DNA of 64,000 nt from Malacoraja senta (GCA_038087875.1 CM075995.1:5768001-5832000), one strand, 5' to 3'. Positions 1,522 to 58,699 are shown, numbered from the stretch's first letter. The notes: generated by a model from the sequence alone, not told the origin. Program-made: numbers and translations.

Positions 1522-1742
1522 ATAGACACAAAATGCTGGAGTAACTCAGTGGGACAGGCAGCATCTCTGGAGAGAAGGAATGGGTGACGTTTCAGATCAA
1601 GACCCTTCTTCAGACTAAAGAAGCGTCTTGATACAAAACGTCACCCATTCCTTCTCTCCAGAGATGCTGCATGTCCCGCTGAGTTACTCCAGCATTTTGT
1701 GTCTATCTTCGGTTTAAACAAGCATCTTCAATTCCTTCCTTC
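1522..1742. mobile_element. Palindromic (inverted dimer) PLE-derived mini-element
   Basis: Two inverted pseudo-LTR copies meeting at ~1614. Direct repeat acaagttgttgtcatt at 1506-1521 and 1743-1758. Confidence 0.85.
1586..1613 (-). ncRNA. Minimal type I hammerhead ribozyme motif (PLE-associated)
   Basis: Minus strand reads CUGAAGA A GGGUC UU GAUCU GAAA CG UC. Confidence 0.55.
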
Positions 1743-3184
1743 ACAAGTTGTTGTCATTGTTTTGATGCAGGTAAATGTGGAACAGACAATTTGTCTCCAG
1801 CAGAACTTTCACCAGCATTTCATAACACTTAAACACTTAAGAGACAATTGGACAGGTACATGAATAGGACACGTTTAGATGGTTATGGGCCAAGGGCAGG
1901 CAGGTGGAACTAATGTAGATGGGGCATGTCGTTCAGCTTGGGCAACTTGGGCCTAAGCGACTGTTTCCAGGCTGTATGGCTCTAACAGTTTTATGATAAA
2001 GAATGAGTAAAACTCCTTTGGCAGTGTTGGCCAAGGTATGACCTCCCAGCCCTTGGCTAAATAGGTCCTAATCAGCAATGCATCATGCGTACATCTGCAA
2101 CTTTTACCTGGGAGCAGGAGTTTGGGAGCACTAACAAGAAGCTTTGTATGCCAGCCCCCAGACAAATCAAAATGCCTGCTTCACCCCCTGTGGAGATGCA
2201 GGCAAACAAATTCTCCCAGCGACCGTCTGTGTTTCCTCTGATTACTCCGGTTTCCTCCCACATCCCAAAGATGTGCGGGTTTGTAGGTTAATTGGCCCTC
2301 TGTAAAATTACCCCTAGTGTGTAGGGAGTGGATGAAAAAATGGGATAACAGAACTAGTGTGAATGGGTGATCAATGCTCAACGTGGACTCGGTGGGCTGA
2401 AGGGCCCGTTTCTGCGTTGTATCTCTAACTGAACAAAAACAATCACCACTCCCGCTTTTCAACCTTTAGTTAGTTTATCGACTTTAAAAGTCTTAGGTTC
2501 CTTATGCAAGGCACTAGGCATTTTCCATTGGCTACCCAAGGTCCTATATTTTATTAGGAAGACTTAATGGTGAATATATACTAACATTACAACCCAGCCT
2601 TATGCTGTAATCACCTGGTCATACGTTCATAAGTTATAGGAGCAGAATTAGGTCATTTGGCCCATCAAGCCTACTCCGCCATTCAATCGTGGCTGATCTA
2701 TTTTTCACTCTCAAACCCATTCTCCTGCTTTCTCCCTGTAACCCATAACCCCTGACATCCTTGCTAATCAAGAAACACCTACACCCACCATCCAGCTGTC
2801 ATCTGGAGACCAAGCAGGACCAAGAGTCAGAGAACTGTGAACCCATGTCAAAGATGAACATAAACAAGAGACATTTATGACAATAGCGTACATTTTTCTA
2901 CCACGTGGAGACAATTCCATGGAACATAAAGAGGGGTCTGGAGAAAATTATGAAGTTATACGGCTGAGCGAATTAAAAGTGAAGTTTATGTAGCCTCTTG
3001 GAGGAGGAGAGTTCGGAAGAAATGCAGAGAGGACTGGAGAATACAGGGCCCAGTCATCAAATAACATTGCCGCCTAAGATGGAGCCATGGGAAGAGGCCA
3101 TGAACGAGGTTTGGAACATTCTATAGGTTATGCAGACAGCTGCCTTTCTCATGTTACAGCCCTGTTACTTCAACAACCTTTTAC

Positions 3185-3475
3185 ATAGAAACATAGAAAA
3201 TAGGTGCAGGAGTAGGCCATTCGGCCCTTTGAGCCAGCACCGCCATTCAATATGATCGTGGCTGATCATCCAGAATCAGTACCCTGTACCTGCTTTCTCC
3301 CCATATCCCTTGATTCCATTAGCCCTAAGAGCTCTATCCAACTCTCTCTCAAACATACCCAGTGAATTGGCCTCCACTGCCTTCTGTGGCAGAGAATTCC
3401 ACAGATTCACAACTCTCCGGCTGAAAAAGTTCTTCCTCATCTCAGTCATACATGGCCTACACCTTATACTTATTC
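3185..3475 (-). mobile_element. CR1 LINE 3' fragment
   Basis: ORF 3276-3482 matches the CR1 ORF2 C-terminus (RVVNLWNSLP..GYGEKAGTGY). (catagaaa)n tail. Confidence 0.85.
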
Positions 3476-3857
3476 TTTTCAAGCTTTCCTACTTGAAAAT
3501 TCATTATTGACAACAACTGCAAAATAATTACTGGTGTATTCCAAATGATAAATCAGGCACCAGAGAGATGAGTTGCAAGCTTGTGCCAAGATGGTGGTAG
3601 AATCAAACTTAATAATCCAGCCTTGGAAAAAAAGTGAGAAGCCAACATTTTTTTCATTACCTGTCCACCATCTTAGTTGGAGGAATGCATGTAGTCAAAA
3701 TGGTAAGAGAAAGCTGCATGAATACCAACACAAAGAAAGAGGAGAAATACTATTCATTTTCTTTGAGGAAAGGAAGGGATGAGCGTGTAGTCAATGCAAA
3801 ACACATTGCAACTCAGGCAAAAATGTTTTCAGAACCTGCATGACCACCTCAATGTTG

Positions 3858-4062
3858 GGGCTCATGTTGTCGACCTCCCCGTGGTGAGCCCTGTCAACTG
3901 ACCTCAGTCAGGCGAACGACAACAAACAGAGACAGCAGCAGCGCCGCAGCTTGGCACCATCCTGGAGCATGCGCCCTTTTTAGGGCGGGCACCTACGGAT
4001 GTCGAACCGGATGGCATCACCCTGCCCAAGACTTCTGCTGCCTCAAACGCAAGAAGAAGAAG
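3858..4062 (+). mobile_element. Short retroposed element with (GAA)n tail
   Basis: Ends acgcaagaagaagaag. 12-bp TSD acctcaatgttg at 3846-3857 and 4063-4074. Confidence 0.7.
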
Positions 4063-5841
4063 ACCTCAATGTTGAATGAAAAGCTGTAGAGAGCCCCTTC
4101 AATAACGTTAATCTTCCCTGAACTCACATGCCCTCCTTAATGACAGTTCAGCTTAGCTATTATCACTCCCCTTCCATAAGTTGTGATTGGAATGACACCA
4201 AACTCTTTGAGACTAGTTATAAATTCTACTTCCTGGATCAGTTCCAGACAGTTGGAAAACTACTCAACATTCCAATATCTAAAACAAAAGGCCTACTCAC
4301 ACACCACAGCACTGTTCACACAACCAAATAGCAGCTCTTCTCCCATTGTTCTCTTCAGAGAGTGCCATTCCTGTTTGTTACTCAGCAGGCATTGAGTGCA
4401 AAATCAATACAGGTTACAAGGGGTTAAAACTAGCTCCAGCCCTGCCTCCACAACAGAGCAACGCTAGCTCCCACACCATTTCCTACACCAGCCTGAGTGT
4501 GAACAGTGCAGCGAGCATGCACTTGGCAGACCAGAAATGGGTCCAACTTTACAGGCTGGTTTGAAAGCAAAGAAGGTGCCTCCCCACCCCCCCAAAAAAA
4601 GACACAGCTGGTTGTTTCATTACCCCAAAAGTCTATTGTACAGTAATTCTTAGAACCGAGTAACAAAATTCAAAAGTGTAGCAAACAAACATCAATCACA
4701 TCGACAGATGCTGGACTATAAAAAATGCTGGGGTGACTCAGCGGATCAGACACCATCATGGAGAACATGGATAGGTGACCCCCTCCTCAAATCTGACCCG
4801 CTGAGTTACTTTAGCACTTTGTTGTCTTTTTTTAAAAATCAATCTCGTCTCCTTATATACTGCCCAGAAATTTCCAGGCACGATCAAGGATATGACTGCT
4901 AGCCAAAAGATGCTGCATGTATTTGAACCAAATTGCAGGTTTTAACTTGGGCAAGTTGCTTTACACCAAGGACCAGTACCAACATGCTGCCCTGCACCTG
5001 TTAAGAGTAAAGCTCTTGTACACATTCAAAACAGATTCACCACTCAGTATCACCTGCAGACAATATCTCCAATCATTTTTGTTTTATTCAAGAGTTTCTT
5101 ATTTAATTGTCATCTGCACCGGGAACGGAACAATTAAATTTTTACTTGCTGCAGCTTAACAGGCCTTTAATACAATAGCACAACAAATAAATATACAATA
5201 ATCAATAATGCAATAAATTATTAATGATACTAGGTATTACGTAACCAGTCTTAAACCGAAGTACGTAGATCAAATAGAACAAAGTCCGCAGTACATAGTT
5301 GCTGATATTGTGCTTAGGCTTGTGTAGTGTGGTTAAGGATCCCAATGGTTGATGGGAAGCAGCTCCAACCTGGAGGTCACTCTTCTCAGGCTCCTGAACC
5401 TTCTTCTTGATGGCAGCAGCAAGCTGAGTGCATGGCCACATTGGTAGGGTCTTTGATGATATTGGCTGTGTTTTTGAGGCACCCCCTCTGGTAGATTGCT
5501 ACGGTGGTGTGATCACGTTCCTAGGTGTTGGAGGTACCAAAGATAGACACAAAGTGCTGGAGTAACTCAGTGGGTCACGCAGCATCTCCAGAGAAAAGGA
5601 ATGGATGACTTTTCAGGGCAAAACCCTACAGTCCCAGTCAGAAGGGTTCCAACCCAAAACGTCACCCATCCTTTTCCTCCAGAGATGTTGCCTGAACCGC
5701 TGAGTTACTCCAGTACTTTGTGTCTATCTTCGGTATAAACCAGCATTTGCAGTTCCACCCTGCACATTTTGTATGAGTTACCAAACCAGGTCACGATGCA
5801 ATCAGTGAGTATGCTCTCTACTGTATAAATGTAGAAGTTCA

Positions 5842-5973
5842 TGTGTAGGAAGGAACTGCAGATGATGGTTTTATACCGCAGATAGACACAAAATGCTGGA
5901 GTAACACAGTGGGACAGGCAGCATCTCTGGAGAGAAGGAATAGGTGACGTTTCGGATCGAGACCCGTCTTCAG
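5842..5973 (-). mobile_element. PLE-derived mini-element inserted in the Rex LINE
   Basis: Pseudo-LTR sequence with 14-bp TSD aatgtagaagttca at 5828-5841 and 5974-5987. Confidence 0.85.
5946..5973 (-). ncRNA. Minimal type I hammerhead ribozyme motif
   Basis: CUGAAGA C GGGUC UC GAUCC GAAA CG UC. Confidence 0.6.
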
Positions 5974-7819
5974 AATGTAGAAGTTCAATTGAGTATTCAG
6001 CAACATGCCGAATGTTCTCAATCTTCAAAGGAAGTAGATACATTCATTGCCAAGCTTTCTTTGTGATTGCATCAACTTACAGAGCCCAGGACAGATCTTC
6101 AGATATTTGCAAGCCCAGGAAATTGAAGCTGTTGACTCTCTCCATGATCGTCCATTGATGAAGACAGGTTCATGGATCCTCAGCTTTCCCCTCCTTAAGT
6201 CAACAGTCAGTTCCTTGGTCTCGCTAACATTGAGAGCAAGATTGTTGTTCTGGCACCAGATATTCAATCTCCCATCTGCACACTGTCTCACCGTTATCCA
6301 TTTTACGTCCAACAACTGTGGGATCATCGGCGAATTTATACTTGACGTTGGAGCTGTGTCTGACTAGGCAGTCATGGATATAGAGAGAGTAGAGTAGGGG
6401 AATGAGCACACAACTTTGAGCTATCCCTATGTTGATGGTCATTGAGGAGAAAGTGTTGTTGCCAATTCGCAATGATTGAGGCCTACTGATGAAAGAGTGG
6501 GGGTTTCAATTGAATTGGGTCGAGCAGGGACGAGAGGGGATGAGGTTGAACCATGAGCTGCACACAATGAGCAACAGCCTGATGTATGTGTTCACATTGT
6601 CCAAGTGGTCTGGTACAGAGTGGAGACCCAGCGAGATCGCGTCTGCTGTTGATTTGCTGTGGCAGCTGGCAAATTGTAGATTCTAGGTCCTTACTAAGGC
6701 AGGAGTTGGTAAGCGTCACAACCAAACTCTCAAGCACTTAATCAGAACGGACATGAACGCCACCGGGCAGTAGTCATTGAGGCATGTCACCTTGCTCTTC
6801 TTGGGCCCTGGTATTATGGATGTCCTTGTAAAGCAGGTGGGGACCTCGGACTGTCATAGTGAGAGTTTGACGATGTCCACAAAAGTTGTAACCAGTTGGT
6901 CCATGCACATTCATGAATTCCAGGTGTAGAATTAGGCCATTCGGCCCATCGAGTCTACTCTGCCATTCAATCATGGCTGATCTATCTTCCCCTCTCAACC
7001 CCATTCTCCTGCCGTCCCCCCACGTGTTAAGAATGCGGCTGGTTACATCATCGGGGCAGGCGTTTGCCAGGGGTTCACCTTTGTGAAGGATTGTCCGACA
7101 TTGGCCTTGGAGACTGAGATCACAGCGTCTTCAGGGTTTGGGGAAGGCCGAGGAGATTAATCGATGTTCTCCCTTTCAAAGCGAGCGTAGAAAGCATTGA
7201 ACACGTCTGGACGTGATGCATCGCTCTCACTCCAGCTACTTGGATTCATCTTATAGGAAGAAAGGGTGTGCAAGCCCTGCCACAGCTGCAGAAAGTCTGT
7301 CTCATCATCTAAAGGAAAAGTGTCTCTTTGCTTTCTCAATGGCCTTCTTGAGTTTGTACCTGGACTTCTTATGGTAGCCTGTAATGCCCAACTCATTCAT
7401 AGGATGTAGACTTGTATTTACTGCCTATACTTTTGGCACAGGAGAGCAGACCTTTTGATACCATCGGGTACCTGGCAAGTGCAATTCAGACAGCAAGTGG
7501 GAGTCACTACGTTGGGATGGGACTGGTTCCACATTTAGTCCAGACTATGCAGGCCTGACACATTTCCTTCCCTAGAGGTTAACAGGACATTGGCTGGGTT
7601 TTAAAAGAGGTATTTTTTAGATACCAGCTATTAATTTCCAGAATATCTCTTTCTTTAAACTGAATTAATATTCTGAAGTTGCCATGATGGAGCTTGCATC
7701 CACAAGTTTTTAAATCTCATAATACATTCATGTCATATGCTGGTGTATTGCTATGGAGTATCCTAGGTTTTAGCTTGAATGGCAGTAACAGTGGAATTTA
7801 AATAAAGTGAAACTGAAGT

Positions 7820-9700: not shown

Positions 9701-9820
9701 ACTTAACATTTTTAATCAAAAGGTTACCTGAAACTTATTATCCTTAGAACAAGTTTACTCCATTCAAACGATAGTAATCTAACCTGGTGCAAATCCACCT
9801 AGCAGATTCCCCAGCCTAAA

Positions 9821-9913
9821 GGTAGACAAAAAATGCTGGAGAAACTCAGCGGGTGAGGCAGCATCTATGGAGAGAAGGAATTGGCGACGTTTCGGGTCGA
9901 GACCCTTCTTCAG
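9821..9913 (-). mobile_element. PLE-derived mini-element
   Basis: Flanked by cagatt(c/t)-type duplication: cagattccccagcctaaa at 9803-9820 and cagattctccagcctaaa at 9911-9928. Confidence 0.85.
9886..9913 (-). ncRNA. Minimal type I hammerhead ribozyme motif
   Basis: CUGAAGA A GGGUC UC GACCC GAAA CG UC, with a perfect stem II. Confidence 0.65.
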
Positions 9914-10089
9914 ATTCTCCAGCCTAAACGTTGATGAAACCATGCTTTTCACCAGACTACACGAGGAATTCAACGTAAGCCGAAACCAGTGTAAACCAGC
10001 TGATGCTAACTGGTGTATTCATGTAGAAGTTCCAAACCGGCTGACATTTACCTATAAACTCAGTCCGCCACTGGAGGTCACATATATCT

Positions 10090-10214
10090 GAGGAAGGGTG
10101 TCGACCCAAATCGTCACCCATTCGTTCTCTCCAGAGACGCTGCCTGTCCCGATGAGCTGCTCCAGCTTTTTGTGCCTATCTTCGGTTTAAACCAGCATCT
10201 GCAGTTCCTTCCTA
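10090..10214 (+). mobile_element. PLE-derived mini-element (degenerate hammerhead)
   Basis: TSD cacatatatct at 10079-10089 and 10215-10225. Confidence 0.8.
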
Positions 10215-10277
10215 CACATATATCTCATCTTTGGTTACAGGCCTCAGGAGTAAAGAGGAGTGGGGAAAAAAAGTGTA

Positions 10278-10570: not shown

Positions 10571-11684
10571 TAAAAAAAATCCCAAAGTAACTCCTTATCT
10601 TAAATGACCTGAATAAAAATGTAGGCCAAAAGAAACTTCTCAATTTCATAATTCCCATCTTCAATTTCCTGCGTGCTCATCTCTGTGTCCCTCCTTTTCT
10701 GGCCTTGAACCGCCCTAATTTGTATCACCCATGCCCTTCCAGCCACTAAGATCCCCGTCTCCTTCCTTAATCTCAGCCTCTACACTCTATATTGCTCCTT
10801 AGACCAGGAACAATTCATTTCTGACATTAATCAAATTCTTGTAAATCCCCTTGGGACTTTTTACCACATTAAAAGCTTTTAGATTTTTTTATGGCAATCC
10901 CTCAGGATTGTCAATGATTTGCCTTCATTCAGGTTTTGTACCTCAGGATAGTGGTTGTGGTGGGAGGCAGATACAATAGTGGTGTTTAAGAGGCTTTTAT
11001 ATAGACACATGAATATGCAGGGTATAGAGGGATATGGATCATGTGCAGATGAGATTAGTTTATCTTGGCATCATGTTCGGCAGAGACGTGGTGAGAATGG
11101 CCTGCTTCTGTACTGGCCACACATGCCAATAGGCTGGATGGGTACACCAGTTTCACTCATCGGCTTAAGCAGGGCCCTTGTGCATTCCCACTGCATTCTC
11201 AATACTATCCCAAATGGTTCTACTCCACGATGTGATCATGGGCCAGAGGTTTCCAGGAATAAGCACAGATGCTGTATTTCTCAAAGGAGGCGTTAAGATC
11301 ATCCTCAAATCTTTCATTTATCTGGTAATCTCTACCCATGACACAATTTAGAATAAGCAGTGCATTTTTTTGGAAATCTTGTTTTGGACATGTGAACAAT
11401 GTGATCGGTGAAATTTAGGGAGATTCACCCATCCCCAATCCTTCTGGCAATACCACCCTAAAGCCCTTTACAACTTATACAGCACATCTGAAGTGTAGCC
11501 ATTGCTGTATTACAGGAAGTGATGCAGCCAATTTACACCTTAAGAACCATAATAAAGACACAGAGTGCTGGAGTTCCTCAGCGGATCAGGCAACACATCT
11601 TTGGAGAACATGGATAGATGATGAAACGTCACCTATCCATGCTCTCCAGAGATGCTGCCTGACCTGCTGAGTTACTCCAGCAGT

Positions 11685-12158: not shown

Positions 12159-12400
12159 CTGATAATTTTCATTCTAAAATAATGAACCAATCACTTCTTC
12201 CCGTCCTATTGAACATGCAAGAATTATGGACTAGGTCACCAGCATTTTAAAGCGTGCCACAGGATCAGTTTAAATAAAAATACAGGATGACCTTTGTTTA
12301 TTGTGGCCTTTGGACAACACCATCCACATTTTTTATACTAAGCCAAACGTTGCCAATATGCTAGGCCAGGACAAGGGCCATAGAACATACAACAGTGCAG

Positions 12401-12582
12401 AAGATAGACACAAAAAGCTGGAGTAACTCAGAGGGACAGGCAGCATCTCTGGAGAGAAGGAATGGGTGACGGTTCCGGTCGAGAAACATCCCCCTTTCCA
12501 CAGATACTGCCTATCCCACAGAGTTACTCCAGCTTTTTGTGTCTATCTTCGGTTTAAACCAGCATCTGCAGTTCCTTCATAT
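12401..12582. mobile_element. Palindromic PLE-derived mini-element
   Basis: Inverted pseudo-LTR halves. TSD acatacaacagt(g/a)cag at 12385-12400 and 12583-12598. Confidence 0.8.
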
Positions 12583-13005
12583 ACATACAACAGTACAGCA
12601 CAGGAACAGGCCTTTCAGCCCACAGCGCTAAACATGATGCCAAGACCAACCCTTATCTATCTGCGCATAATCCATATTCAGGTGTCTATCCAAAAGTCAC
12701 TTAAATGCCACGACCGTACCTGCCTCCACCACCACTACCCTGGACAGCACATTCTAGGCACTCAACAACCTGTACCCAACACATCTCTATAATACAAAAC
12801 TCTTCCTATTGTTTGTGTTTGTGCCGATGATGAGTCAATCTGTTTTTCCTACCTTCTTCCAAACGCTAGGCCACAGCCTTCCCATTTTCACATAACCTAC
12901 TCACATTTTTCCCATTGTGGCGATAAACATCTTCCAGTCGCATTCCCACCTATATTTCCGATGATATTAATCCTTTAAATTTTAAAAACAGACCCAAAAA
13001 CTCAC

Positions 13006-15452: not shown

Positions 15453-16815
15453 CAATTTGCTCCCATGAGTTGTTACAGAATGTATCTACATTTTAAAAGG
15501 CTCACTTTTGCGGAAATAAAAACAATAAATTTCAACACGATGTCCCAGTAAAGTGAAAACAAACCCCGTGTTCTTTTCATACTGATCAATACGTTTTCCG
15601 AGTACTGTTTTGTTATAAAAAACGACAAACAATAACAAACGACCTGTTAAAATACAGCAGTTGCACTCAACCCAGCTTGTGCCTGCGTTTTATCTGGTTG
15701 GCAAGTTGTTTGTTTGTTCTAGTTCTTTAAAAAACGTGCTTCAAATCAATCATTTGGGGGATTGAAGTTGTGAATGCAAGAATTTGCCTCATCCTTCCAA
15801 GAAAGAACACAGCCTCTCCACTAAATTAGTAGTCATTCTTTCCATTGCCTGCCCATCACTCTGCTGTGGGGGGGGCTGCAAAATAAATGGGACACCTCAG
15901 TATGTAAGCAAGGAGCGTTTCATGTCGAGACCCTTCTTCAGGCTCCAGCATTTTGTGTCTATCTCCGCTGTTACTCCAGCACTTTGTGTCTATCTTCCGT
16001 GCAAACCAGCATCTGCAGTTCCTTGCTCCACAAGGGAGAGTTTCATACTGTGCGTTGCAGGAGACTTTTTCCAAGTGTTTTTCTAATGAAAAGTCAGAAT
16101 CGAGGCCAAATCCAGCTCGGGGTTTCCACTCCACCCACTGGACGCTGGCCTCGGGTGAGTGATGCAGCAAGGTTTGTCTTGGGATCGGGACCAGGGTTGG
16201 GGGGTGTTGGAACCACAGGCGGTGCAAGTGGACCAACATATGGCCGCGTCCCGCCCCGGGGAACTCCTGCACCAGCACCATTTTACACTTTTATTTTTGT
16301 TTTGGGTTTTTTCCTCCCCCCCCCCCCCGTGCCACTACCTTTAGACGGGGAGGGGATGCAGCAATAACATTGGTAATTGCAATCAATCCACCGAAAGGGC
16401 CCGATTGCAAAAAGCCTAATCTCTCCCTGCACCGATCACTGAATTCTTGAATGCATGCAAGACTGCGAGCAGACTGAGCTCGAGCAGTGGCTCGGGTCTG
16501 ACCGGCAACTAGTGATTAGAAGACAAGATGTTGCAAGCAGAGAGCACGAGGCCCAGTTGCAAACTGGAAATAGTGATATAATGCACCGGCTCGGGGAGGA
16601 GACCACGCACAAAGCTCAATTCAAACAAATTTTAAAAAACATTGCGGGGACGTTGAGGGGGGAGTTAAAATCCATTCGCTCCGCTTTAGGTTTATCAATA
16701 ATTACTTAAAGCAACGTTAATTTCACCCCCGCCCCCCCGCGCAAATCTAGTGGGGATGCTGACTTTAATTATTAACCGATTGCTCTGAAGAGGTCTGAAA
16801 GAAGCGATGACCTAC

Positions 16816-16843: not shown

Positions 16844-17849
16844 CTCAACCCCAGCAGCCGTGCGCTCTCTCTGCCGCTGTCACCCGTGCACGCCTCCTGC
16901 TGGTCACTCCCTTCAACTGGGAATCAACCCCCTTTCTTGATCAATGACCCATATTCAACTTTTGGCAGAGGAAAATAAACAACAAAATGTGTCTGAACTA
17001 GATATTTGCATCAGTGAAGCAATGTTTCATTGCACTAGATTTCTGATTTGCTCAGGTAATGAGATGCATGGGACGTAGTGGCATTAAAAAAAACACATTT
17101 GGACGGGTATATGGAAAAGAAAGATTTAGAGGGACAGACACAAAATCGCTAGAGTAACACAGCGGGACAGGCAGCATCTGTGGAGAGAAGGAATGGGTGA
17201 CATTTCGGGTTGAGACCCTTCTTCGGACTGATTCGCACAAGATTCAGGGATATGAGCCAAACGCGAGCAGGTGCGACTAGTAGGTCGGCATGGCCAAGTT
17301 GGGCCAAAGGGCCTGTTTCCATGCTCTGACTGCCTTTTGCGGATATGGTTCAGCGATATCACAGTAAATCCTTGGTATCAGAAGGTTGGGCACGGGAATC
17401 CAACGGCAAGGTTTCAAGGGTCAGTTTATTGTCACATGTAATTAAGGTACAGTGAAATTCGAATGACCATGTGTTTGAATGAGAAATGTACACTAACTCT
17501 CCTCAGCAGCACCAAAGCTGCACAATTGCAGTGCCAATCCTTCAGAGGTGGAGTATTGGTTTATTATTGTCATATGTATCAAAATACGGGTATGCTATTC
17601 TGGGATTGACACAAAAAACCCTACATCCCTGTTAGATCTGTTGAGCTTTTCCAACATTTTCTATTTTCATTTCTAATTTCTGCGGTATTTTGAAGAATAG
17701 AGGTGAGCCCTAGACAATTATCACGTAATCGATCCAAGGCTATTATCTGCTCTTTACCACATTTGTTTGTGGAATCTTTGCATTGAAATTGGCTGTCACA
17801 TTTCCTGCATCTCAACAGTGAATACACTTCATAAGAACAAACACAAGGT

Positions 17850-19155
17850 AGAAACATAGAACATAGAAACATAGAAAAATAGTTGCAGGAGTAGGCCATT
17901 CGGCGCTTCGAGCCAGCACTGCCATTCAATATGATCATGGCTGATCATCTAAAATCAGTACCCCGTTCCTGCTTTTTCCCCATATCCTTTGATTCCTTTA
18001 GCCCTAAGAGCTAAATCTAACTCTCTTGAAAACATCCAGTGAATTGGCCTCCACTGCCTTATGTGGTAGAGAATTCCACAGATTCACAACTCTCTGGGTG
18101 AAGAAGTTTTTCCTCATCTCAGTCCTAAATGGCCTACCCCTTATTCTTAAACTGTGACCCCTGGTACTGAAGGAACCCGGCAAAATCTGGGGAGGGAATG
18201 GACAGGCAACATTTCAGATCCTTTATCAATCTGAAGAAGGGTTCCAACCTAAAACATCACCTGTGCATTATCTCCCCAGATGCTGCATGACCCGCCAGAA
18301 CTTTGTGTTTTACTCAAGGTTCCAGCATCTGCAATTCCTTATGTTCACACTTAATAAGAATGTCATCATTCAAAATGCGTTAAGGTATTCTGTGGTATTA
18401 AAGATACTATATAAATGCAAACATCCTTCTGCACACTTGAGTGAAATAAATTGGCATTCATTGGTTCACTCAAAATGGTGCGCTTGTTTCCTTGCGTTAC
18501 CTGCTTTGATTTAGCTTTCCCAGGCATGAGAGGGGACACATGCTACTTGCAGCAAGGATTGTTCTTGTGACATTGAATTTATCCATAGTGAGGCCAGTTG
18601 ACAATAGGTGCAGGAGTAGGCCATTCGGCCTTTCGAGCCAGCACTGCCATTCAATATGATCATGGCTGATCATCCACAATCAGTACCCCATTCCTGCCTT
18701 CTCGCCATACCCCCTGACTCCGCTATCTTTAAGAACTCGATCTAATTCTCTTGAAAGCATACAGAGAATTGGCCTCCACTGCCTTCTGAGACAGAGAATT
18801 TCACAGATTCACAACTCTCTGGATGAAAAAGTTATTTGCTAATGTTACTTTTGGTAATGTTACCTTTAATCTAAATCATTAATGTATATTGTAAAGAGCT
18901 GTGGTCCTAGCACCGAGCCTTGTGGTACCCCACTAGTCACTGCCTGCCATTCTGAAAGGGACCAGTTAATCCCTACTCTTTGTTTCCTGTCTGCTAACCA
19001 CTTCTCTATCCATGTCAGTACCCTACCCCCAATACCATGTGCTCTAATTTTGCCCACTAATCTCCCATGTGGGACCTTATCAAATGCTTTCTGAAAGTCC
19101 AGGTACACTACATCCACTGGCTCTCCCTTGTCCATTTTCCTAGTTACATCCTCAA
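17850..19155 (-). mobile_element. Cluster of CR1 fragments (two 3' ends and an RT piece)
   Basis: ORF 18866-19135: [39 protein letters not shown]. 3' UTRs at ~17870 and ~18600. Confidence 0.8.
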
Positions 19156-21636: not shown

Positions 21637-21673
21637 CACTCATTTAGGTTGGCCACAGAGTTTGTGGGGGCTG

Positions 21674-21760
21674 GTACACAAAAATGCTGGAGAAACTCAG
21701 CGGGTGCAGCAGCATCTATGGAACGAAGGAAATAGGCAACGTTTCGGGCCGAAACCCTTC
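21674..21760 (-). mobile_element. PLE-derived mini-element
   Basis: TSD ttgtgggggctg at 21662-21673 and 21761-21772. Confidence 0.8.
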
Positions 21761-42435: not shown

Positions 42436-43647
42436 GGCAGGACTCACACAGTGAATGGCAGGACTCTGAGGAGTATGTAGAGCAGAGGGAACTAGGAGTG
42501 CAATACATACAGTAGTTCCCTGACTTCCAGGAGACCGCGCACAGCCGATGCTCCTAGGAGATCGCGGACCTTGCTCAGCCGAACGGTAGACCTGGCGGAA
42601 CGCGGCTTCAGGGAGAGCCGAATTCCCGCGGCTGAACAGAAGTAGTTCAATGGGTTAGAGTGCTCTCCATTTGCCTGAATACGTGCAGCTCCAATTACGC
42701 TCAGAAAACTTGACTCCATAAAGACCAAAATTGTCTGCTTGGTCAGCATCTAAAAACAATTACATTCCATTAAAAAAAAAACTCAGATAGTCGTGCAGTG
42801 TACACTATCTTTAAGAAGACAAAGATTCCACAAAAGCAAATCCAAGACCCTCACTTTTTACCACCTAGTATGTCAGCACCATCAGGCACTGAAGAAAACC
42901 ATCTCCAGGCTTCTCGCCAAGTCACATACTATACTGATTTAGAAATACACAGCTACACTTTCATCATCACTGGGACAATTTTGTCCTTAAAACTATTTGC
43001 TTCTTAATTTTCTTTTTGATGGAAGGCAATCTTAGCAGAGAGGGGTGCCTCCAGCATCCACATCTACACTTTCTGGTAGTGTAGATGGAAAAAAACTCAC
43101 GTGGAGCTCGGGTTTTACTTTAGCTTCTTCCCTGCAGCCATCAGGCTATTAAACACGACAACAAATAAGCTCTGAACTGCAACAGACTATTATTATTATT
43201 GAAGTATATTTGTTTATTTATTGAGGATGTGTGCATGTGTATATATACACACTGAACTTTTTTTCTCCCGTTATGTACTATGTTTACATATTCTGTTGTG
43301 CTGCAGCAAGTAAGAATTTCATTGTCCTATCTGGGACATATGACAATAAAAACACTCTTGACTCTTGACTAGAACAAACTCTCTTTATTACAAATTGGCC
43401 AATTTGAAAGTCTTGTCCGAGGACCGGTGGTCTTGTATCTTAGCACAGATATCCGCAGGTAATAAGCTTTTTATACTACATTCAACATTCCCAGACCCCT
43501 GGAGTTTGAGGACTGGTTGCAAGACAGTATCCAGGCATTGGTGCACGTAAGGAGACTGTTATAATCCAGTTTCAACAAGGTTTCAGTGAGGACCCTCACC
43601 CAGGCTTGAACTTCATCTCACGTCTTGGGTTTATCTGTCTTAGCCTA

Positions 43648-44110
43648 CTCCGCTCAGTCTGCCTGGACCTACCAGATCTCCCGGTTGCCAAACACTTTAA
43701 TTCCCCTTCACATTCCCACACTGTCCTAGGCCACCTCCATTGTCAGAGTGAGGCTAATTTCAAATTGGAGGAATAGCATCTCATATTTGGCTTGGGCAGC
43801 TTACAACCCAGTGATATGAATATTAATGTCTTTAACTTCAAGTTACCCCTGCACTCCCTCTCTCCCCCACCCAAGTTGCACCAGGTTCCTGTTCTCACCT
43901 AACAAACTGCTAACAATTGCCTGTTTCCTTAATCATAGTTACATTTTTACATATCTTCCATTCATTTGTTCTATATCTCTCTACATGACGGTTTATATCT
44001 CTCGTTTCCCTTTATAGTCTGAAGAAGGGTCTCACCCGAAACGTCTCCCATTCTTTCTCTCCAGAGATGCTGCCTGCCCCGCTGAGTTACTCCAGTATTT
44101 TGTGTCTGTC
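43648..44110 (+). mobile_element. Penelope-like element 3' fragment
   Basis: Decayed GIY-YIG tail (PDLPVAKHFNSPSHSH..) followed by the pseudo-LTR. Confidence 0.8.
44019..44045 (+). ncRNA. Minimal type I hammerhead ribozyme motif
   Basis: CUGAAGA A GGGU CUC ACCC GAAA CG UC. Confidence 0.6.
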
Positions 44111-48344: not shown

Positions 48345-48941
48345 AAGATGCTGGTGTCAATTTATAAAAGATGAAATAGCAGCACATTTGGATAGCAGTA
48401 GCAGAATCGGTCTGAGTCAGCATAGATTTACGAAGGGGAAATCATGCTTGACTAATCTTCTGGCATTTTTTGAGGATGTAACTGGGAAAATGGACAAGGG
48501 AGAGCCAGTGGATGTAGTGTACCTGGACTTTCAGAAAGCATTTGATAAGGTCCCACATAGGAGATTAGTGGGCAAAATTAGAGCACATGGTATTGAGGGT
48601 AGGATAGAAAATTGGTTGGCAGACAGGAAAGAAGAGTAGGGATTAACGGGTCCCTTTCAGAATGGCAGGCAGTGACTAGTGGGGTACCGCAAGGCTCGGT
48701 GCTGGGACCGCAGCTATTTACAATATACATTAATGATTTAGATGATGGGATTAAAAGTAATATTAGCAAATTTGCAGATGACACAAAGCTGGGTGGCAGT
48801 GTGAACTGTGAGGAGGATACTGTGAGGATGCAGGGTGACTTGGACAGGTTGGGTGAGTGTGCAGATGCAGTTTAATGTGGATAAATGTGAGGTTATCCAC
48901 TTTCGTGGCAAAAACAGGAAGCAGATTATTATCTGAATGGT

Positions 48942-49658
48942 GTTCAAGAAGGAACTGCAGATGCTGGAAAATCGAAGGTAGACAAAAGTGCTGGAGAACT
49001 CAGCGGTGTGGCAGCATCTATGGAGGGAAGGAAATAGGCAACCTTTCGGGCCGAAACCCTTCTTCAGACTGATGCAAGGTGGGGGGGTGGGGAGGTGGGA
49101 AGAAGAAAGGGAGAGCCAGAGCGCTGAGGGAGAGCTGAGAAGGGGAGGAGACAGCAAGGGCTTCCGGAAATTGGAGAAGTCAATGTTCTAGCCGCTAGGG
49201 TGCAGACTGCCAAGCAGAATACGAGGTGCTGCTCCTCCAATTTCTGGTGGTGCTCACTCTGGCCATGGAGGAGGACCAGGACAGAAAGGTCGGATTCGGA
49301 ATGGGAGGGGGAGTTGAAGTGCTGAGCCACAGGGAGATCAGGTTGGTTAATGCAGACCGAGCGGAGGTGTTCGGCGAAACGATCGCCAAGCCTACGCTTG
49401 GTCTGACCGATGTAGATCAGCTGACATCTGGAGCAGCGGATGCAATAGATGAGGTTGGAGGAGGTGCAGGTGAACCTCTGTCGCACCTGGAACGACTGCT
49501 TGGGTCCTTGAATGGAGTCGAGGGGGGAGGTAAAGCGACAAGTGTAGCATCTCATGCGGTTGCAAGGGAAAGTGCCCGGGGAGGGGTGGTGCGGTTGGGA
49601 ATGGAAGAATTGACCAGGGAGGTACGAAGGGAGCGGTCTTTGTGGAAAGCAGACAGGG
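48942..49658 (-). mobile_element. 5'-truncated Penelope-like (Neptune-type) element: GIY-YIG endonuclease plus 3' pseudo-LTR
   Basis: ORF 49064-49711: PGTFPCNRMRCYTC..NLIYCIRCSRCQLIYIGQTKRRLGDRFAEH. Cys-rich linker and CxxC inside the GIY-YIG motif. Confidence 0.9.
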
Positions 49659-50987
49659 GCATCATGTTGGGAAATGGGGAAGTACGACAAGATCTGGAGG
49701 TTCTTGTTCATCAGTCACTAAGTAAGCATGCAGGTACAGCAGGCAGTGAGGAAAGTGAATGGTATGTTGGCCTTCATAACAAGAGGAGTTGAGTATAGGA
49801 GCAAAGAGGTCCTTCTGCAGGTGTACAGGGCACTAGTGAGACCACACCTGAAGTATTGTGTGCAAATTTGAGGAAGGACATTCTTGCCATTGAGGGAGTG
49901 CAGCGTAGGTTCACGAGGTTAATTCCCGGGATGGAGGGACTGTCATATGTTGATAGAATGGAGCAGCTGGGCTTGTATACTCCAGAATTTAGAAGGATAA
50001 GATTATTAAGGGTTGGGACACGCTTGACGCAGGAAACATGTTCCCGATGTTGGGGTAGTCCAGAACCAGGGGCCACAGTTTAAGAAGTAGGGGTAGGCCA
50101 TTTAGAACGGAGATGAGGAAAAACGTTTTCACACAGAGGGTTCTGAATCTGAGGAATTCTCTACCTCAGAAGGCAGTGGAGGCCAATTCTCTGTATGCTT
50201 TCAAGAGAGAGTTGGATAGAGCTCTTAAAGATAGGGGATATGTGGAAAATGCAGGAACGGTGTATTGAGTGTGGATGATCAGCCATAATCACAGTGAATG
50301 GCGGTGCTGGTTCAAAGGGCTGAATGACCTACTCCTGCACCTATTGCCTATTGCCGATTGTCTACTATAACTGAGTAAGGGATTAACTTTGTATTAGTGG
50401 AAACAATGCACTGCAAATGCTGGTTATTACACAAAAGGACACAAAGTGCTGAAATAACAGCCTATCGGGCATCATCTCTGGAGAACATGGCTAGGTGACT
50501 TATCGTGTCAAGACCCTTCTTCAGACTCGCGGTCTGGAACTGGGCCTGGATTCCTGGTGAGGTAGCCGCCGTGAGATGCGCAGATCAGTGGAGTCATTCG
50601 TCGTGGCTTGTGGACGGCCAAAGTGCAGGTAAAGTTGGCAGTGGCAGGCGTGACCTGGAAGTAGCCAAGGAGGCGGCACAGACCGGCATCAGCAGGCAGG
50701 CCTGAGAGGTGGTGCGGGCCAGATCTGGCATTGGGAGACTGGCAGTGAAGCAGCCGGGCATGGCGTCAGCAGCCCAGCCTGAAAGCGGCCGGGAAGGCAG
50801 GGGGCGAGGCTCTCGCTTAACTTTTTTCCCCTGTTGCCAGCCGGGCAACCTTGACAGCTTTTTAGGTTGCCAAATGACTGTTTAGGTGGTCATTGAAGAC
50901 GGTTTGCATGACGCGTGCGATAATGTGCTCGGACGAAGTGCGTAGTTACCAGTCGGAATTATGCTCAATGAAGCATTCACATATTAT

Positions 50988-51204
50988 GTTCAAGAAGGAA
51001 CTGCAGATGCTGGAAAATCGAAGGTAGACAAAAGTGCTGGAGAAACTCAGCGGGTGCAGCAGCATCTATGGAGCGAAGGAAATAGGCAACGTTTCAGGCC
51101 GAAACCCATCAGTCTGAAGAAGGGTTTTGGCCCGAAACGTTGCCTATTTCCTTCGCTCCATAGATGCTGCCGCATCCGCTGAGTTTCTCCAGCACTTTTG
51201 TCTA
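50988..51204. mobile_element. Palindromic PLE-derived mini-element
   Basis: 14-bp TSD cattcacatattat at 50974-50987 and 51205-51218. The paralogous site at 24854-24867 has a single copy. Confidence 0.92.
51114..51141 (+). ncRNA. Minimal type I hammerhead ribozyme motif
   Basis: CUGAAGA A GGGUU UU GGCCC GAAA CG UU. Confidence 0.6.
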
Positions 51205-51959
51205 CATTCACATATTATTTCTGCTTCAAATAACTCACAAACTAAACATATTCACCAATCAAGACATGATATATACCACAATGACATGCAGCAAAATTAT
51301 GATACAATATCTCAACTCTTTTTACACATTACAATTACAATTCAGCATATGATCAACCTACGTCAATAAATCCTGGACCATGGTAACATATATGCTTAAC
51401 CATACACACTACAGATTGATGCAAGCATGTTTTCTGTGAAGGACCGAAAATTACCATGACATGGCCATAGCATGGGTCGTTATTGCTATTGGCACAGAAA
51501 CACTCTGGCTTCCCACATAATTTATCCATAACAAAATATACAGGTTGCAAGGAAATTTCTGAAGGCATTTTATGATAATAGCTGTTAAAACCAACTATGC
51601 CCATCTGACATACCATATTACACTAACTGACAAGAGATGGCCAAAGGACATAACTGCAGCAAATGTTCTTTTGGTAATATGTTTAAAGGTGTTAAAACAA
51701 ATAATAACATTGGGAATTAAAACACATTTGATTACATTCCGTTATCAAACATAATCAATGTTCGCTCTGAAGACCATGAAGCACAATAGGGTCAGGGTGT
51801 GTGTGAATCAGTGCGGGGTGGATAGATGGCGGGGGGGGGGGGGGGGGGGTTGAGAAGGCAATCGGTGCGGAATGGATGGATTGAGGCAGGTGAATTAGTA
51901 CGTGTTGGTTGGAGTATGTAAAATTGTGAGGGGAGAGCACGGGGGATGTCAGTGGTGTT

Positions 51960-52500
51960 GAATGAGGGGATCAGTATGGGATGGATGGGGGGGGGGATCA
52001 GTATAGGATGAATGGGGGTTCAGTACAGGATGAATGGGGGTAAACAAAAATTCTAGAGAAATTCAGCGGGTGAGGCAGCATCTATGGAGCTAAGGAAATA
52101 GGCAACGTTTCTGGTCGAGACCCTTCTTCAGACTGTTCCCCCCATTCTCCTTGAATGGGTGGATCAGTACAGGATGGATGGGGGGGATCAGCACAGGATG
52201 AATGGGGGGGGTCAGGACAGTGTGGATCGGAGGGTCTATGCAGGATGAATGGGAGATCACTATAGGATGAATGAGGGGATCAGTACAGGATGAATGGGGG
52301 ATCAGTAAAAGATGAATGGGAAGATCACTACAGGATGGATGGGGGATTGGTGCAGGGTAAATGGAGAGTGGGTCAGTTTGGGATGAATGGGAGGGTCAGT
52401 GCAATATGAATGGGGGGAAAAGTGCAGGATGGATGGGAAGGGGGGTCAGTACAGGATGAATTGGGGGACCAGTGTAGGATGGATGGGGGGGGGGGGTGGC
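51960..52500. repeat. ~21-bp minisatellite (gggggatcagtacaggatgaat) interrupted by a PLE mini-element at ~52040-52135
   Basis: Degenerate direct tandem units. Confidence 0.85.
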
Positions 52501-54600: not shown

Positions 54601-54606
54601 TTTATT
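54601..54606 (-). promoter_or_regulatory. Candidate polyadenylation signal (AATAAA) for RP9
   Basis: tttatt on the plus strand, ~390 nt past the RP9 stop codon. Confidence 0.35.
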
Positions 54607-54988: not shown

Positions 54989-55163
54989 TTATTCTGAACT
55001 GTCACTTGATTTTTCTGTTTTATGTTTCTTTCTTTTCTTCTTTTTTTTCTTCTTCTTCTCTTTTCTCTTCCTCTTCTTTTTGTGCTTTTCTCTGGAATCT
55101 GAGGGACTGGAACTGTGACTGTCCGAAGTACTGTCTTCTAACATCTGTTTCAGCTGCTGTATC
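54989..55163 (-). CDS. RP9: RP9 (retinitis pigmentosa 9 / PAP-1 splicing factor), last coding exon
   Basis: Acceptor tttctttccag|G, then IQQLKQMLEDSTSDSHSSSPSDSREKHKKKRKRKEKKKKKKKKRKKHKTEKSSDSSE*. This matches the recalled vertebrate RP9 C-terminus (RIQQLKQLLEDSTSD..Lys-rich tail). No upstream exons were found in the window. Confidence 0.9.
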
Positions 55164-56777
55164 CTGGAAAGAAATTGCCACATTACTGTAATTAAATATC
55201 TATCCTTACTGACAATGGACTGTGTCTATTTTTCTTCCTCTCAATTATCAAGGATTGTGAAGTAAAGCAAAATAATAAATGTCGACAGGGATATCACTGA
55301 ACTGTTGCTCTCTTTCTCTGTCTGTCTCTCAGTAGAGTCCCCATCTCAGTTCCCTTATATCTAGATTCTAGAGGAAGTGGACTTGAATAGATAAACTGGC
55401 AATTAATCACTCATGATCATCAATCACCAGGACTGGAAGCTCCGTCATGCCTTTCTCTTATCTCCTGAATCTATTTACTGGTCTTGGAATGCCGAGATAA
55501 CCTCTGGCTTCTTTTCCTTCTTGCAGACTTAAACTACTCTAGCTTTCTCAATTGTCATCACTACCTCGTGCAAGTAATTGATAGACCCCTGATGGCAGCT
55601 CATGAACTTCCTTTGCAACTTCCTTCCCTACTTCACTCTGACCAGCTCAAACTTCCTTTATGTTTCCCACCATACTGAACAATGAATAACCCCGAACAAA
55701 TCTTTCAGCAGTTTCACTATTCACTTCCCACATGCTTCTCAGCAAAACAAAATCTAGTTCATATAACCAACTTCCTAGTCCTTTGAACCAATTCCACTAA
55801 ACTGCCAACCGCCCATCTTCCTTATGTGGTGACCATTTTATCAATTATTATTTTCATTTCTCTTTCTTTAGTTACAACTTCCCTCTTCTTCAAATCTCCT
55901 CTCTTCAAAACAATGTTTGTCCTAATTTATCATTCCTTGAAAGCCAATGTTGTATTTCCATTTGCTTTCCTCTACAAACTTCTCAAAATTGCTTCCTTCC
56001 TAAATTAATGCCCATCTTTCCGAGAAGTGTAGACACAAGAAATTGCAAATGCTGGATTCTTGTGTTAAAAAAAACAACTGCGGCAGGAACTCAATAGCTA
56101 GGCAGCATCTATGAAATTTGACAGATGATGTTTTGGGTCGGGACCCTCATCAAGCTGAAGTGCTTGCTGCCCATGCTGCTAACTGAGCTGCTGAGTTCCT
56201 CCAGACTTTTCCTAGAGGTATGTTGAATTCACACAATAATTCCTGCTAAAATGCAAGTTCTGCCACTTCAATGATTCTGACAAAGGTAAACTATTACCCT
56301 TATTTTTCTCATTCTGTCTGCAAACTTCATTGTCATTGGTCATGTCAACCTCCTCCAACTCTCTCTTGAATGGTCAGTCGATTGGGAATGCTAGTCTATG
56401 GGTTCCATTTTATTAAACATTTGCCATGCCTAAAATCCGTCCATAACACTTTATTTCATGAAGTGAATTACATTGTAACCTCTGGTGGTTCACTCTGTTC
56501 CACCATTGATACCCTATTTATCATGGATGATGATTAGTGTCTGATCATTTGCCATCAAAACACTCATCCATCCCCTGCCGTCCCTAGGCGTGACTATTCC
56601 AACATATTGCAGATCTGGTTCCTTCATTCTGCCTTCCAAACTTTAAAACGTGTCCTTTCTTTGCACCGTCCCACTCATCCATCAACCTTATGCGCAGTGA
56701 CTTACACTGGCTGGTATTTACGCAGTAACTCAGCTTTAAAATTCTTATCTTTATGTTAAAACCCTTCCAAAGACATG

Positions 56778-57120
56778 TAGACACAGGGAACTGCAGATGC
56801 CAGTTTACCAAAAAAGATACAAAGTGCTGGAATAACTCAACGAGTCAGGAAGCATCTCTAGAGAACATGGATAGGTGACGTTTTGGATCGGAATCCTTCT
56901 TCTGACTGATTGTAGTAGCGGGGAGAAAGTTGGACGAGAGGTGGGGGCAGGACAAAGCCTGGCAAGTGATAGGTGGATACAGGTGAGGATATTTTTTGAT
57001 AAGACAGGTGGTTGGACAAAGGTCAGAGATGAAAAGAGAAAAAGTGTGAGAAAAGGATAGAAAGAGGAGTGAAATGTGAAGCCAGGGGAAGTAATATAGG
57101 TGAAGCAGATGGGGCGGGAA
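56778..57120 (-). mobile_element. Penelope-like element 3' fragment
   Basis: Pseudo-LTR with a degenerate hammerhead motif (~56878-56905) and adjacent 3' UTR. Confidence 0.7.
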
Positions 57121-57972
57121 TGGGGCATCAACATCCCCTATCATCAACACTCCAATCGTGTTATCAGGTCCTTTCCAGACCTTTTAAAGAATTTCCCAAT
57201 AGAACTAGCCCAGCCTTCATCTCTTAAGGCCTTAAGATCTGATTTTGCTCCTAATATTTTTCTGTCTTTCCATCGCTCCTTCCTCCTTTATGGTTTTCCT
57301 TAAGTCCTAACGCTGATTTTAGCAATCTGGTCTGGCATCTTCTCATTTTGCTCAGTTAAATTTTGTTTAGATAACAGTTTGCTTTATTCACACCGTGTGC
57401 CTCCCCCCTCACCAACACAGGCGTGCACACAAGTTTACTATGATTCTATTCTGCAATTACGCTAATTACAATTTTGTTTAAACATTAAGATCAGCATTTA
57501 CCTGACTCTTCAGCACTAATCCTATCAAATAAAAAGTATTTTTAGTAAAACAATCAAGAATCAAGTTTAATTAATCTCAAATTCAATAAAAGTCCTGGCA
57601 AGTGAACATTAAGGATTAAAAAGCTTGGGTAAATACCTGTGGATATACCGCTTCTTATCTCAATAATTTTCTCCAGCACTGCATATAGATAGGATTTGTG
57701 TATTGCTTCATATCTAACGTAGCGTACATGCATCAATTTCCTTCACACAAAATGGTACGTGTGTGGCCCATTATCAATATCTTTTTTTGTTGCCAAAATT
57801 ACAAAGAACAGGCCTGTTTTGTGCAGAATGACAAAGTGGGATGAGATGATTCAAGAACATGGGAAAGGGTCAAGTGGCAAGACAGTGCACTTTCTGTCAT
57901 CCTGCTCTTCGCACCTTCTTCAGTTTTTTTGTGATTCATCAAGAGCCAGTTTCAGGTTGATGTGAATGATCA

Positions 57973-58385
57973 TAAGACTATAAGACAAAGGTGCAGATTT
58001 AGGATATTCGGCTCATCGAGTCGGCCCTGCCTTTCGATCCATGATCGCTGATCCATTTTTCCCTCTCAACCCCATTCTCATGCCTTCTCTCCGTAACCTA
58101 GACTCCCTGACTAATCAAGAACCTACCAATCTCTGCTTTAAAAATACCCAATGTCTTGACCTCCACAGCCGTCTGTGACAATGAATTCCACAGATTCACC
58201 ACTTTGTCTCCATTCTAAAGTTACGTCTGGTTCTAGATTGTCCCATTACTGGAAACGTCCTTTCTATCGAGGCCTTTCATTATTCGGTAGGTTTCAATAA
58301 GATCCCCCTCATTCTTCTCAACTTCAGTGAGTACAGGCCCAGTGTCATCAAACGCTCCTCATACCCAATAAACTCCCGGGATCAA
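57973..58385 (-). mobile_element. Decayed CR1 3' fragment
   Basis: CR1 3' UTR and ORF2-end similarity with deletions. Confidence 0.7.
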
Positions 58386-58597
58386 CATTAGTGTAGATCG
58401 AGATCTGAAGAGAGTTCCAGGCAACTGAATTAAGCATTCCGCACCAGTTCCATTTCAAGGGGAAATAACCTAGCATAACAACAAGTACAGAGTAGGCAAC
58501 AAATCAAACCATTATCTAGATTTTGGCAAAAATGTGCTAAGACTAGGTTTCGGCTCCAGATTCCCCGACTAGGAAATGTCAGGCTTTTATCACATCT

Positions 58598-58699
58598 AAG
58601 TAGTTGATCACAAAGTACTGGAGTAACTCAGTGGTTCAGGCAGCATCCCTGGAGAACATGGGTAGGTGACGTTTCGGGTTGAGACCCTTCTTCAGACTC
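58598..58699 (-). mobile_element. PLE-derived mini-element
   Basis: TSD ttatcacatct at 58587-58597 and 58700-58710. Confidence 0.8.
58668..58695 (-). ncRNA. Minimal type I hammerhead ribozyme motif
   Basis: CUGAAGA A GGGU CUCA ACCC GAAA CG UC. Confidence 0.55.

Follow-up and report, generated by a model that had tools for sequence, protein, structure and literature searches.

A 64,000-nt stretch of Malacoraja senta DNA (GCA_038087875.1 CM075995.1:5768001-5832000; the window, meaning that whole stretch) raises the question of how so many minimal hammerhead ribozyme motifs came to lie in it, and whether they act as ribozymes there. An earlier note, made from the sequence alone, described them as a dense, retrozyme-like family carried by Penelope-derived mini-elements. 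From the window and a sample of the assembly, we find that the dominant form is a dispersed stub of ~90-130 bases, with target-site duplications (TSDs) at its flanks, that consists of the hammerhead and tail end of a Penelope-like element (PLE). These stubs were probably produced by target-primed reverse transcription (TPRT) from two internal sites on an RNA that was likely uncleaved, with synthesis mostly halting at the 5' edge of the hammerhead.

A regular-expression scan and direct reading recovered all seven motifs previously called intact, two on the plus strand (44019 and 51114) and five on the minus strand, for which the low coordinates had been quoted. Positions are counted from C3 of the hammerhead core as 0, with predicted cleavage between +27 and +28; the C3 coordinates are given in Table 1. 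All seven keep CUGANGA/GAAA/UH, the 15.2-16.2 pair and 4 bp of stem II. The degenerate copies on the list were likewise present, and a profile built from 21 natural copies found 39 copies in the window, with 0 matches once the first 80 sampled loci had been locally shuffled. The high density holds, although at 1 per 1.6 kb in the window rather than 1 per 3-4 kb. CUGANGA/GAAA/UH is kept in 10 of the 24 core-spanning window copies, 7 of which have the 4-bp stem II and the 15.2-16.2 pair. Stem II is mostly paired, as was said, its best form having 4 bp and a loop of 4 nt, whereas only 2 nt would remain in the loop if GGGUC/GACCC were read as 5 bp. Stem I, put at about 2 bp, ranges from 0 bp (at 44019) to 2 bp among the seven. 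Both a 2-bp stem I and the additional base behind A9 have been described for PLE hammerheads (PMC4209133). An Rfam scan matched no hammerhead family, even at E<=10. GIY-YIG remnants lie upstream of the motif, in sense orientation, at 23.9, 44.0 and 49.0 kb. This supports the identity of the motifs as PLE-type minimal type I hammerheads, very numerous, in the pseudo-long-terminal-repeat (pLTR) ends of a GIY-YIG PLE.

For the genome sample, we took 160 stretches of 10 kb at even spacing along 17 large contigs (C1-C15, C18 and C19; 1,597,695 non-N bases), small contigs being excluded. It held 668 copies (1 per 2.4 kb), a density that by extrapolation would put about 0.8 million in the whole 1.94-Gb assembly. 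The exact intact minimal-hammerhead pattern matched 58,086 times genome-wide and a reversed control 0 times. An endonuclease (EN) was attached to only 42 of the 668 sampled copies. Among 370 core-spanning copies, the core was intact in 152 and the motif fully intact in 87. An A directly followed A9 in 97% of copies; the 10.1-11.1 pair was GC in 234 and GT in 66 of ~365 copies having both letters; and the 15.2-16.2 pair, without a loop III, was CG in 191, the others being mostly CA/TG, the products of CpG decay. G12, which lies within a CpG, was kept in 71% of 250 long copies, on par with other CpG positions, and non-CpG positions were mostly ~90-96% kept in core and flank alike. The stub copies decay neutrally after insertion, and at least six sequence clusters of differing age have the motif.

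The 3' ends of the stubs fall in two clusters, +86..99 (near) and +124..137 (far). Both recur as loose ends in four runs; these come from three organisms, not one of which has been shown to be M. senta. Exact TSDs of at least 9 bp, mostly 9-19 bp long, bound 41 of 287 single stubs, compared with 3 in a swapped-flank null. A hazard table of the 5' ends of 436 non-inverted copies revealed no smooth truncation series. Instead, 155 of 299 at-risk copies end within -6..+3, or 7.1% per base, a ~14-fold excess, with the mode at -1 (29/436). Elsewhere the hazard was 0.5% per base over +11..+45, 1.6% over +4..+10, 2.8% over -16..-7 and 0.3-0.8% further upstream, the majority of intervals outside the pile-up having 0.3-0.6%. 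No excess of 5' ends was seen at the cleavage site (+26..+32; 13/374 copies, 0.5% per base), and it is therefore likely that cleaved RNA was not the template. A family-specific 3' untranslated region (UTR) hidden behind the 5' pile-up was ruled out: pyrimidine content beside the boundary is 49% (background) in stubs versus 81% in long copies, and junction-proximal upstream sequence is common to only 11 of 153 stubs, as displayed all host-repeat composites or internal duplications. Separately, short arrays of ~32-nt units, made of alternating or repeated stem II-to-cleavage-site fragments, occur at sampled loci L209, L181 and L098, where they apparently reflect repeated template jumps at the stem II palindrome.

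Head-to-head pairs account for 232 of the 668 sampled copies. Sample and window together gave 123 head-to-head against 12 tail-to-tail arrangements, and exact TSDs bound 38 of the 123, versus 3 in the null. The junction lies exactly on the TCAG-x-CTGA palindrome at the hammerhead 5' edge in 19 of the 123 and at the stem II palindrome in 4. The 121 unique pairs comprised 72 far+near, 13 near+near, 11 far+far and 25 unclassified, so that 72 of 96 classifiable pairs were far+near where half would be expected (p=4e-7). When the ends were instead defined by the TSDs (n=38), 35 pairs were far+near, two joined a far end to a very short one, one had both ends under +112 and none was far+far. This near-strict pairing suggests that one event primes each of two nicked target strands at a different start site, which would fit a dimeric protein able to extend both of them.

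In the mechanism that we propose, TPRT would begin ~65 or ~100 bases past the cleavage site, probably on uncleaved RNA, and cDNA synthesis would mostly halt at the hammerhead 5' edge. A dimeric PLE protein would nick both target strands and prime one at each start site; two cDNAs joined head-to-head, often via microhomology at the TCAG-T-CTGA palindrome, would yield a pair, and one cDNA joined to the target a single stub. The hammerhead would be a passenger in stubs and conserved in source elements, and it would probably need dimerisation or the aid of a protein to cleave. There is a close biochemical counterpart in the anole PLE, Poseidon PAc of Anolis carolinensis, in which two internal reverse transcriptase (RT) start sites past the hammerhead delimit a 30-40-nt 'tail', both strands are nicked and extended, and uncleaved RNA is the dominant substrate (PMC11167929). 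The M. senta element differs in its Cys linker, in an open reading frame (ORF) that appears to start ~160 nt beyond the core and not within it, in the apparent use of different start sites by the two strands of one insertion, where that study gives bulk data with no strand difference, and in genomic 5' ends that stop at the hammerhead edge.

For this stop we narrowly, and tentatively, favour the 5' end of the RNA as the cause over resolution by palindrome or nuclease. Minus-strand strong-stop DNA of long terminal repeat (LTR) elements is a short cDNA that starts at an internal primer site and extends as far as the 5' end of the RNA, and in L1 twin priming two primers from a staggered target cut produce an inversion. 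The stubs may, as one possible reading, be strong-stop-like run-off cDNAs of a transcript that starts 3-6 bases before the hammerhead, with the uncleaved ribozyme at the mRNA 5' tip, the two nicked strands primed by a dimeric RT-endonuclease at two different, fixed sites each time, and the short cDNAs then ligated into the target. Unlike in either precedent, target DNA would here act as the primer, at two RNA sites that are fixed and non-homologous, and the arms both copy one region. Such a start would explain the stem I limit of 2-3 bp. The sequence at the boundary, TCAGTCT, resembles the Initiator consensus, and a capped start within it predicts an extra G at -4. Genome-wide, G made up 2002 of 4957 non-C letters at -4, compared with 1655 A (G/(A+G) 0.547), counts that amplified composite repeats may inflate; the control position -5 gave 0.488 (250/512; Fisher p=0.012) and context nulls 0.41-0.48.

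A number of observations weigh against this account. The genome-wide excess of G was not reproduced in the listed stretch of contig C1, where the value at -4 was ~0.49 and the control 55/100. On inspection of 13 G-class copies, the extra G was clear in 2, target-derived in 3, from a partner or partial copy in 3 and unclear in 5; the cap-G signature at -4 is not specific, nor does it stand clearly over the -5 control. By estimate, ~13-17% of stubs reach -4/-5, beyond the proposed start. Conservation of the core across families is suggestive only: 0 of 11 core columns changed their commonest letter across clusters, compared with 13-15 of 57 downstream columns (p~0.1; K=4, 6), and at K=8 1 of 11 was variable (p=0.26), so that the difference from the flank is not significant.

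It is also a real possibility that the pile-up is not an RNA end at all, and that reverse transcripts of a longer RNA were cut or resolved at the TCAG-T-CTGA palindrome (by fold-back, annealing of two cDNA ends or GIY-YIG cleavage) or stalled on entering the C-rich upstream tract; all other parts of the proposed mechanism would stand. The midpoint of the palindrome, -1, is also the most frequent 5' end, the pairs joined exactly at the two palindromes have been counted above, many single junctions have microhomology around -3..+5, and palindromes at pLTR 5' ends are described for rotifer PLEs (PMC3846280). However, an identical pile-up is found in partnerless single stubs, and in several copies the sequence restarts exactly at -3 behind filler or a partial copy, much as if the template had been switched where an RNA ends. 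The perfect fold-back junction with a G loop has only 10 matches genome-wide, and fold-back was rejected on the same count as the source of the -4 G. Joining guided by the palindrome explains a share of the pairs, and the singles less obviously.

We consider it quite unlikely that the boundary is a 3' splice site (a pyrimidine tract followed by CAG/TCTG) and that stubs derive from spliced or back-spliced RNA. EN-attached copies do have pyrimidines and CAG before the core, with C at -4 in 36 of 37 and A and G at -3/-2 in 34 of 37; a donor-like site lies ~160 nt downstream, where 3 of 10 matches to the ORF-start region begin exactly (GTATG containing the first ATG); and the Drosophila virilis Penelope intron that ends at helix I is a precedent (PMC4209133, PMC2377424). 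The predicted donor-acceptor junction, however, occurred only twice genome-wide, both times in a single locus, and a model of the ORF as an intron, or of back-splicing, was rejected on that finding. In addition, stubs have no common upstream exon, and among the junctions displayed none joins to the proposed splice site, the tract there being masked in one analysis.

A SINE-like (short interspersed nuclear element-like) lineage of stubs, with its own internal promoter and re-mobilised in trans by PLE protein, is unlikely. It would agree with the presumed RT-binding tail in the stubs, with a ratio of stubs to EN-attached copies that is higher in older clusters, and with the internal promoter known for Penelope (PMC2377424). 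Against it, shared flanks of a second generation are absent apart from the host-repeat composites already mentioned, and the youngest clusters hold stubs and ORF-attached copies with identical letters.

The earlier note's own reading, of an active retrozyme-like population that self-cleaves, circularises and spreads as non-autonomous units, is in our judgement very unlikely. In its favour are the many exact matches and intact cores, and the proposal that animal retrozymes derive from pLTRs; animal non-LTR retrozymes are also non-coding, pLTR-related and provided with a type I hammerhead (bioRxiv 10.64898/2026.07.22.740005). Retrozymes as described there are head-to-tail tandem units, whereas the copies here are dispersed TSD-flanked monomers or head-to-head pairs. 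Among 625 TRF arrays (sampled loci and window, 1.66 Mb), the core was present in 2 and a full-length unit in one only, so that head-to-tail units each with a complete hammerhead do not make up this population. Stubs span the cleavage site intact, and units bounded by it were ruled out by the missing 5'-end excess at +26..+32. The neutral CpG decay of G12, the predicted folds below and the presence of EN-attached copies in every cluster except the oldest argue against it as well. The single full-length tandem (L095:5372-5764) has 2.3 units of 168 bp with a hammerhead motif per repeat, the second with G12A, in a stub amplified inside a satellite-like repeat (compare window 52039-52500 (-) and L075); it is a possible seed of a retrozyme-type array.

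Nor do most stub hammerheads appear to be working ribozymes, and the earlier description of the insertions as ribozyme-bearing is doubtful if activity is meant. In formal terms the fold is complete, yet it is weak. Stem I is 2 bp in 59 of the 87 otherwise intact copies and in 30 of 37 EN-attached copies. The only variation in stems I and II is one-sided (U-A/U-G), with no two-sided compensatory change above noise. The predicted probability of stem I was <=0.14 in all 16 folds of four intact window copies, and with 60 nt of context that of stem II was <=0.02 in 3 of the 4, a downstream pyrimidine run being predicted to pair with the core; this alternative fold is predicted to bury it. Such minimal motifs cleave poorly alone (PMC4209133; PMC6765202), and the anole motif cleaves only with protein, cleavage being dispensable for insertion (PMC11167929). 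The lack of 5' ends at +28 is genomic evidence that cleavage is dispensable for insertion here too. Taken with the decay of G12 and the minority of fully intact copies, the predictions make it likely that most stub hammerheads are inactive. In one raw poly(A) RNA run from a related organism (~6% read), the motif was covered about equally on both strands with no pile of read starts or ends; this is a weak test, and in one analysis the repeat mask hid the bases just upstream of the motif.

To characterise the parent element, we searched the genome with a GIY-YIG query, which returned 84,526 first-look candidates. Locus L031 holds a near-full element with a 547-aa frame containing RT, a CX4CX2C linker and GIY-YIG. 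Its Pfam matches at L031:4003-5643 are weak (RVT_1, E 5e-4; GIY-YIG, E 1e-3), both below cut-offs. The frame has 2403 homologs at E<=1e-20, of which many carry PF00078/PF01541; they come from sharks, rays and marine invertebrates, the nearest named ones from sharks and rays. No sequence relative was found in the PDB. No uninterrupted full-length PLE ORF was seen among the elements examined. The linker was read directly in L031 and in the 49-kb copy of the window; a CX2-5CxxC linker between RT and EN is a mark of Neptune-type PLEs (PMC8557442, PMC3846280), and by this linker the parent is assigned as a Neptune-type EN+ PLE. At 20 of 24 loci containing the 5' part of the ORF (L132-L155), a hammerhead and tail lie ~200-340 nt upstream of the ORF and run into it, and in the displayed loci a truncated copy of the ORF 3' end precedes the hammerhead, forming a pLTR partial tandem. 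These loci are not independent because many are near-identical segmental copies: one pLTR-ORF junction is found again and again on many small contigs, together with ~1.5 kb of near-identical flank upstream, a PLE within a larger amplified repeat. Partial tandems with an internal deletion, in which the ORF-start region abuts the 3' UTR or hammerhead, were also observed at window 40724-41077 (+), L165, L115, L183 and L213.

The association of PLEs with hammerheads is already known. The motifs here are real and of an ordinary kind; their scale is large, and they inform on mechanism. They share with published minimal PLE hammerheads the CUGANGA/GAAA/UH core, a conserved unpaired base between 9 and 10.1, G10.1-C11.1, a palindromic 15.2-16.2 without loop III, a pLTR location and an occurrence mostly as single dispersed motifs with nearby opposite-strand pairs; stems are 4 bp (II) and 2 bp (I) here, compared with 4-5 bp in most published motifs and 2 bp in helix I of D. 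virilis Penelope (PMC4209133). The 58,086 exact matches compare with ~4,000 in coelacanth and ~9,000 in Xenopus, obtained with a different descriptor (PMC4209133). Neptune-clade EN+ PLEs likewise have RT, a Cys-rich linker, a C-terminal GIY-YIG, partial tandems, inverted 5'-truncated copies, a tail at one end and TSDs (PMC8557442, PMC3846280), whereas here stubs of ~100-130 nt dominate. Neither the 5'-edge pile-up nor the far+near rule was found in the literature searched, which took in few subscription papers and not Repbase; Fig. S2 of PMC11167929 (genomic end coverage) could already show a 5' boundary, and Figs. S2-S3 of PMC4209133 and the tables of bioRxiv 10.64898/2026.07.22.740005 (one chondrichthyan sampled) may list these motifs.

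Table 1 Hammerhead-bearing copies, related PLE remnants and a host exon in the window.
Feature	Coordinates	Strand	Details
Single stub	1011..1128	-	Degenerate core; near start site; 16-bp TSD with one mismatch
Head-to-head pair	1506..1758	both	Joined at TCAG-x-CTGA palindrome; 16-bp TSD at 1506 and 1743
Minus arm of 1506..1758 pair	1522-1617	-	Intact core, C3 1613; near start site
Plus arm of 1506..1758 pair	1611-1750	+	Degenerate; far start site
Head-to-head pair, tail fragments	4705..4826	both	Without core
Head-to-head pair	5526..5772	both	Degenerate cores
Single stub	5828..5987	-	Intact core, C3 5973; far start site; exact 14-bp TSD; 5' end at hammerhead edge
Single stub	9803..9928	-	Intact core, C3 9913; near start site; 18-bp TSD overlapping first core bases (microhomology)
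Single stub	10079..10227	+	Degenerate core; far start site; 13-bp TSD
Head-to-head pair	11551..11684	both	Truncated within hammerhead
Head-to-head pair	12385..12594	both	Near+far start sites; 12-bp TSD
Head-to-head pair, partial	15909..16037	both	
Single stub	17134..17231	-	U4C core change
Single stub	18227..18341	+	G12A
Single stub	21662..21772	-	Begins within core; exact 12-bp TSD
Two degenerate stubs	22931..23515	-	22931-23010 and 23393-23515
5'-truncated PLE	23873..24320	-	GIY-YIG remnant ~24096-24320; pyrimidine-rich 3' UTR; intact hammerhead, C3 23955; tail
Older-family stub	25963..26088	+	Partial 3' UTR upstream; core intact; stems II/III damaged
Single stub	27268..27359	+	Begins within core
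Internally deleted partial tandem	40724..41077	+	Tail, PLE ORF-region start, 3' UTR, degenerate hammerhead, tail
Second-family 5'-truncated PLE	43612..44110	+	Broken GIY-YIG remnant to 43797 (start approximate); 3' UTR; intact core, C3 44019; 3-nt loop II, no stem I; tail
5'-truncated PLE	48939..49630	-	CX4CX2C linker and GIY-YIG (49199-49630); 3' UTR; hammerhead, C3 49067, stem III broken; tail to far start site
Single degenerate stub	50403..50527	-	5' end at hammerhead edge
Head-to-head pair	50974..51218	both	Minus arm far site; plus arm near site, intact core, C3 51114; exact 14-bp TSD
Stub within satellite-like repeat	52039..52135	-	Composite unit common to L075 and L095
Apparent last coding exon, RP9-like host gene	54992..55150	-	Presumed match to RP9
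Degenerate stub	56037..56155	-	Sense in apparent last intron of RP9-like gene
Stub with 3' UTR upstream	56785..56909	-	U4A core change; apparent last intron of RP9-like gene
Single stub	58584..58710	-	Intact core, C3 58695; 14-bp TSD; sense in apparent RP9-like last intron

That some copies lie inside host introns is borne out at 56.0, 56.8 and 58.6 kb, all three in sense orientation within what is apparently the last intron of an RP9-like gene, one of them with an intact core. This intron is ~11 kb long and also holds an L2/CR1-like element. Upstream exons of the gene lie beyond the window, at L048:2349-2410 and 4992-5083 (-), equivalent to 66349-66410 and 68992-69083. A 30-aa exon scored 0.87 to an RP9 cluster, which is a lead only, and we take the other two, including the last exon, to be RP9-like as well; the candidate host exons drew no gene name from Pfam scans. 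A second host gene, on the plus strand and likewise without a Pfam name, may have exons at window 353-405 (+) and 26862-27077 (+) and near the 3' end of L047. Other features of the window were a nearly intact APE and RT long interspersed nuclear element (LINE) with a 603-aa RT frame at 59327-62264 (+), with many related fragments at 13.5, 34-36 and 44-48 kb; a LINE 3' end with zf-RVT at 20531-21436 (+); a sub-threshold match to the hepatitis delta virus-like ribozyme RF02682 at 3857-3923 (+; 32.8 bits versus a gathering threshold of 44, E 0.03); and a 36-bp tandem array of ~6 near-identical units at 32310-32575.

On how PLEs transpose and what the hammerhead does for them, one in-vitro study found two internal RT start sites and a dispensable cleavage. 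The hundreds of thousands of natural reaction products in this genome agree with that study and add two rules open to test: within an event each target strand has a single start site, and the stop is at the hammerhead 5' edge rather than at the cleavage site. For annotation, intronic hammerhead motifs of this kind would mostly be inert transposon debris rather than regulatory ribozymes. If the stubs are indeed run-off products of a transcript that begins just before the hammerhead, they would be among the largest vertebrate hammerhead-motif populations reported and would offer a genome-scale readout of the PLE mechanism.

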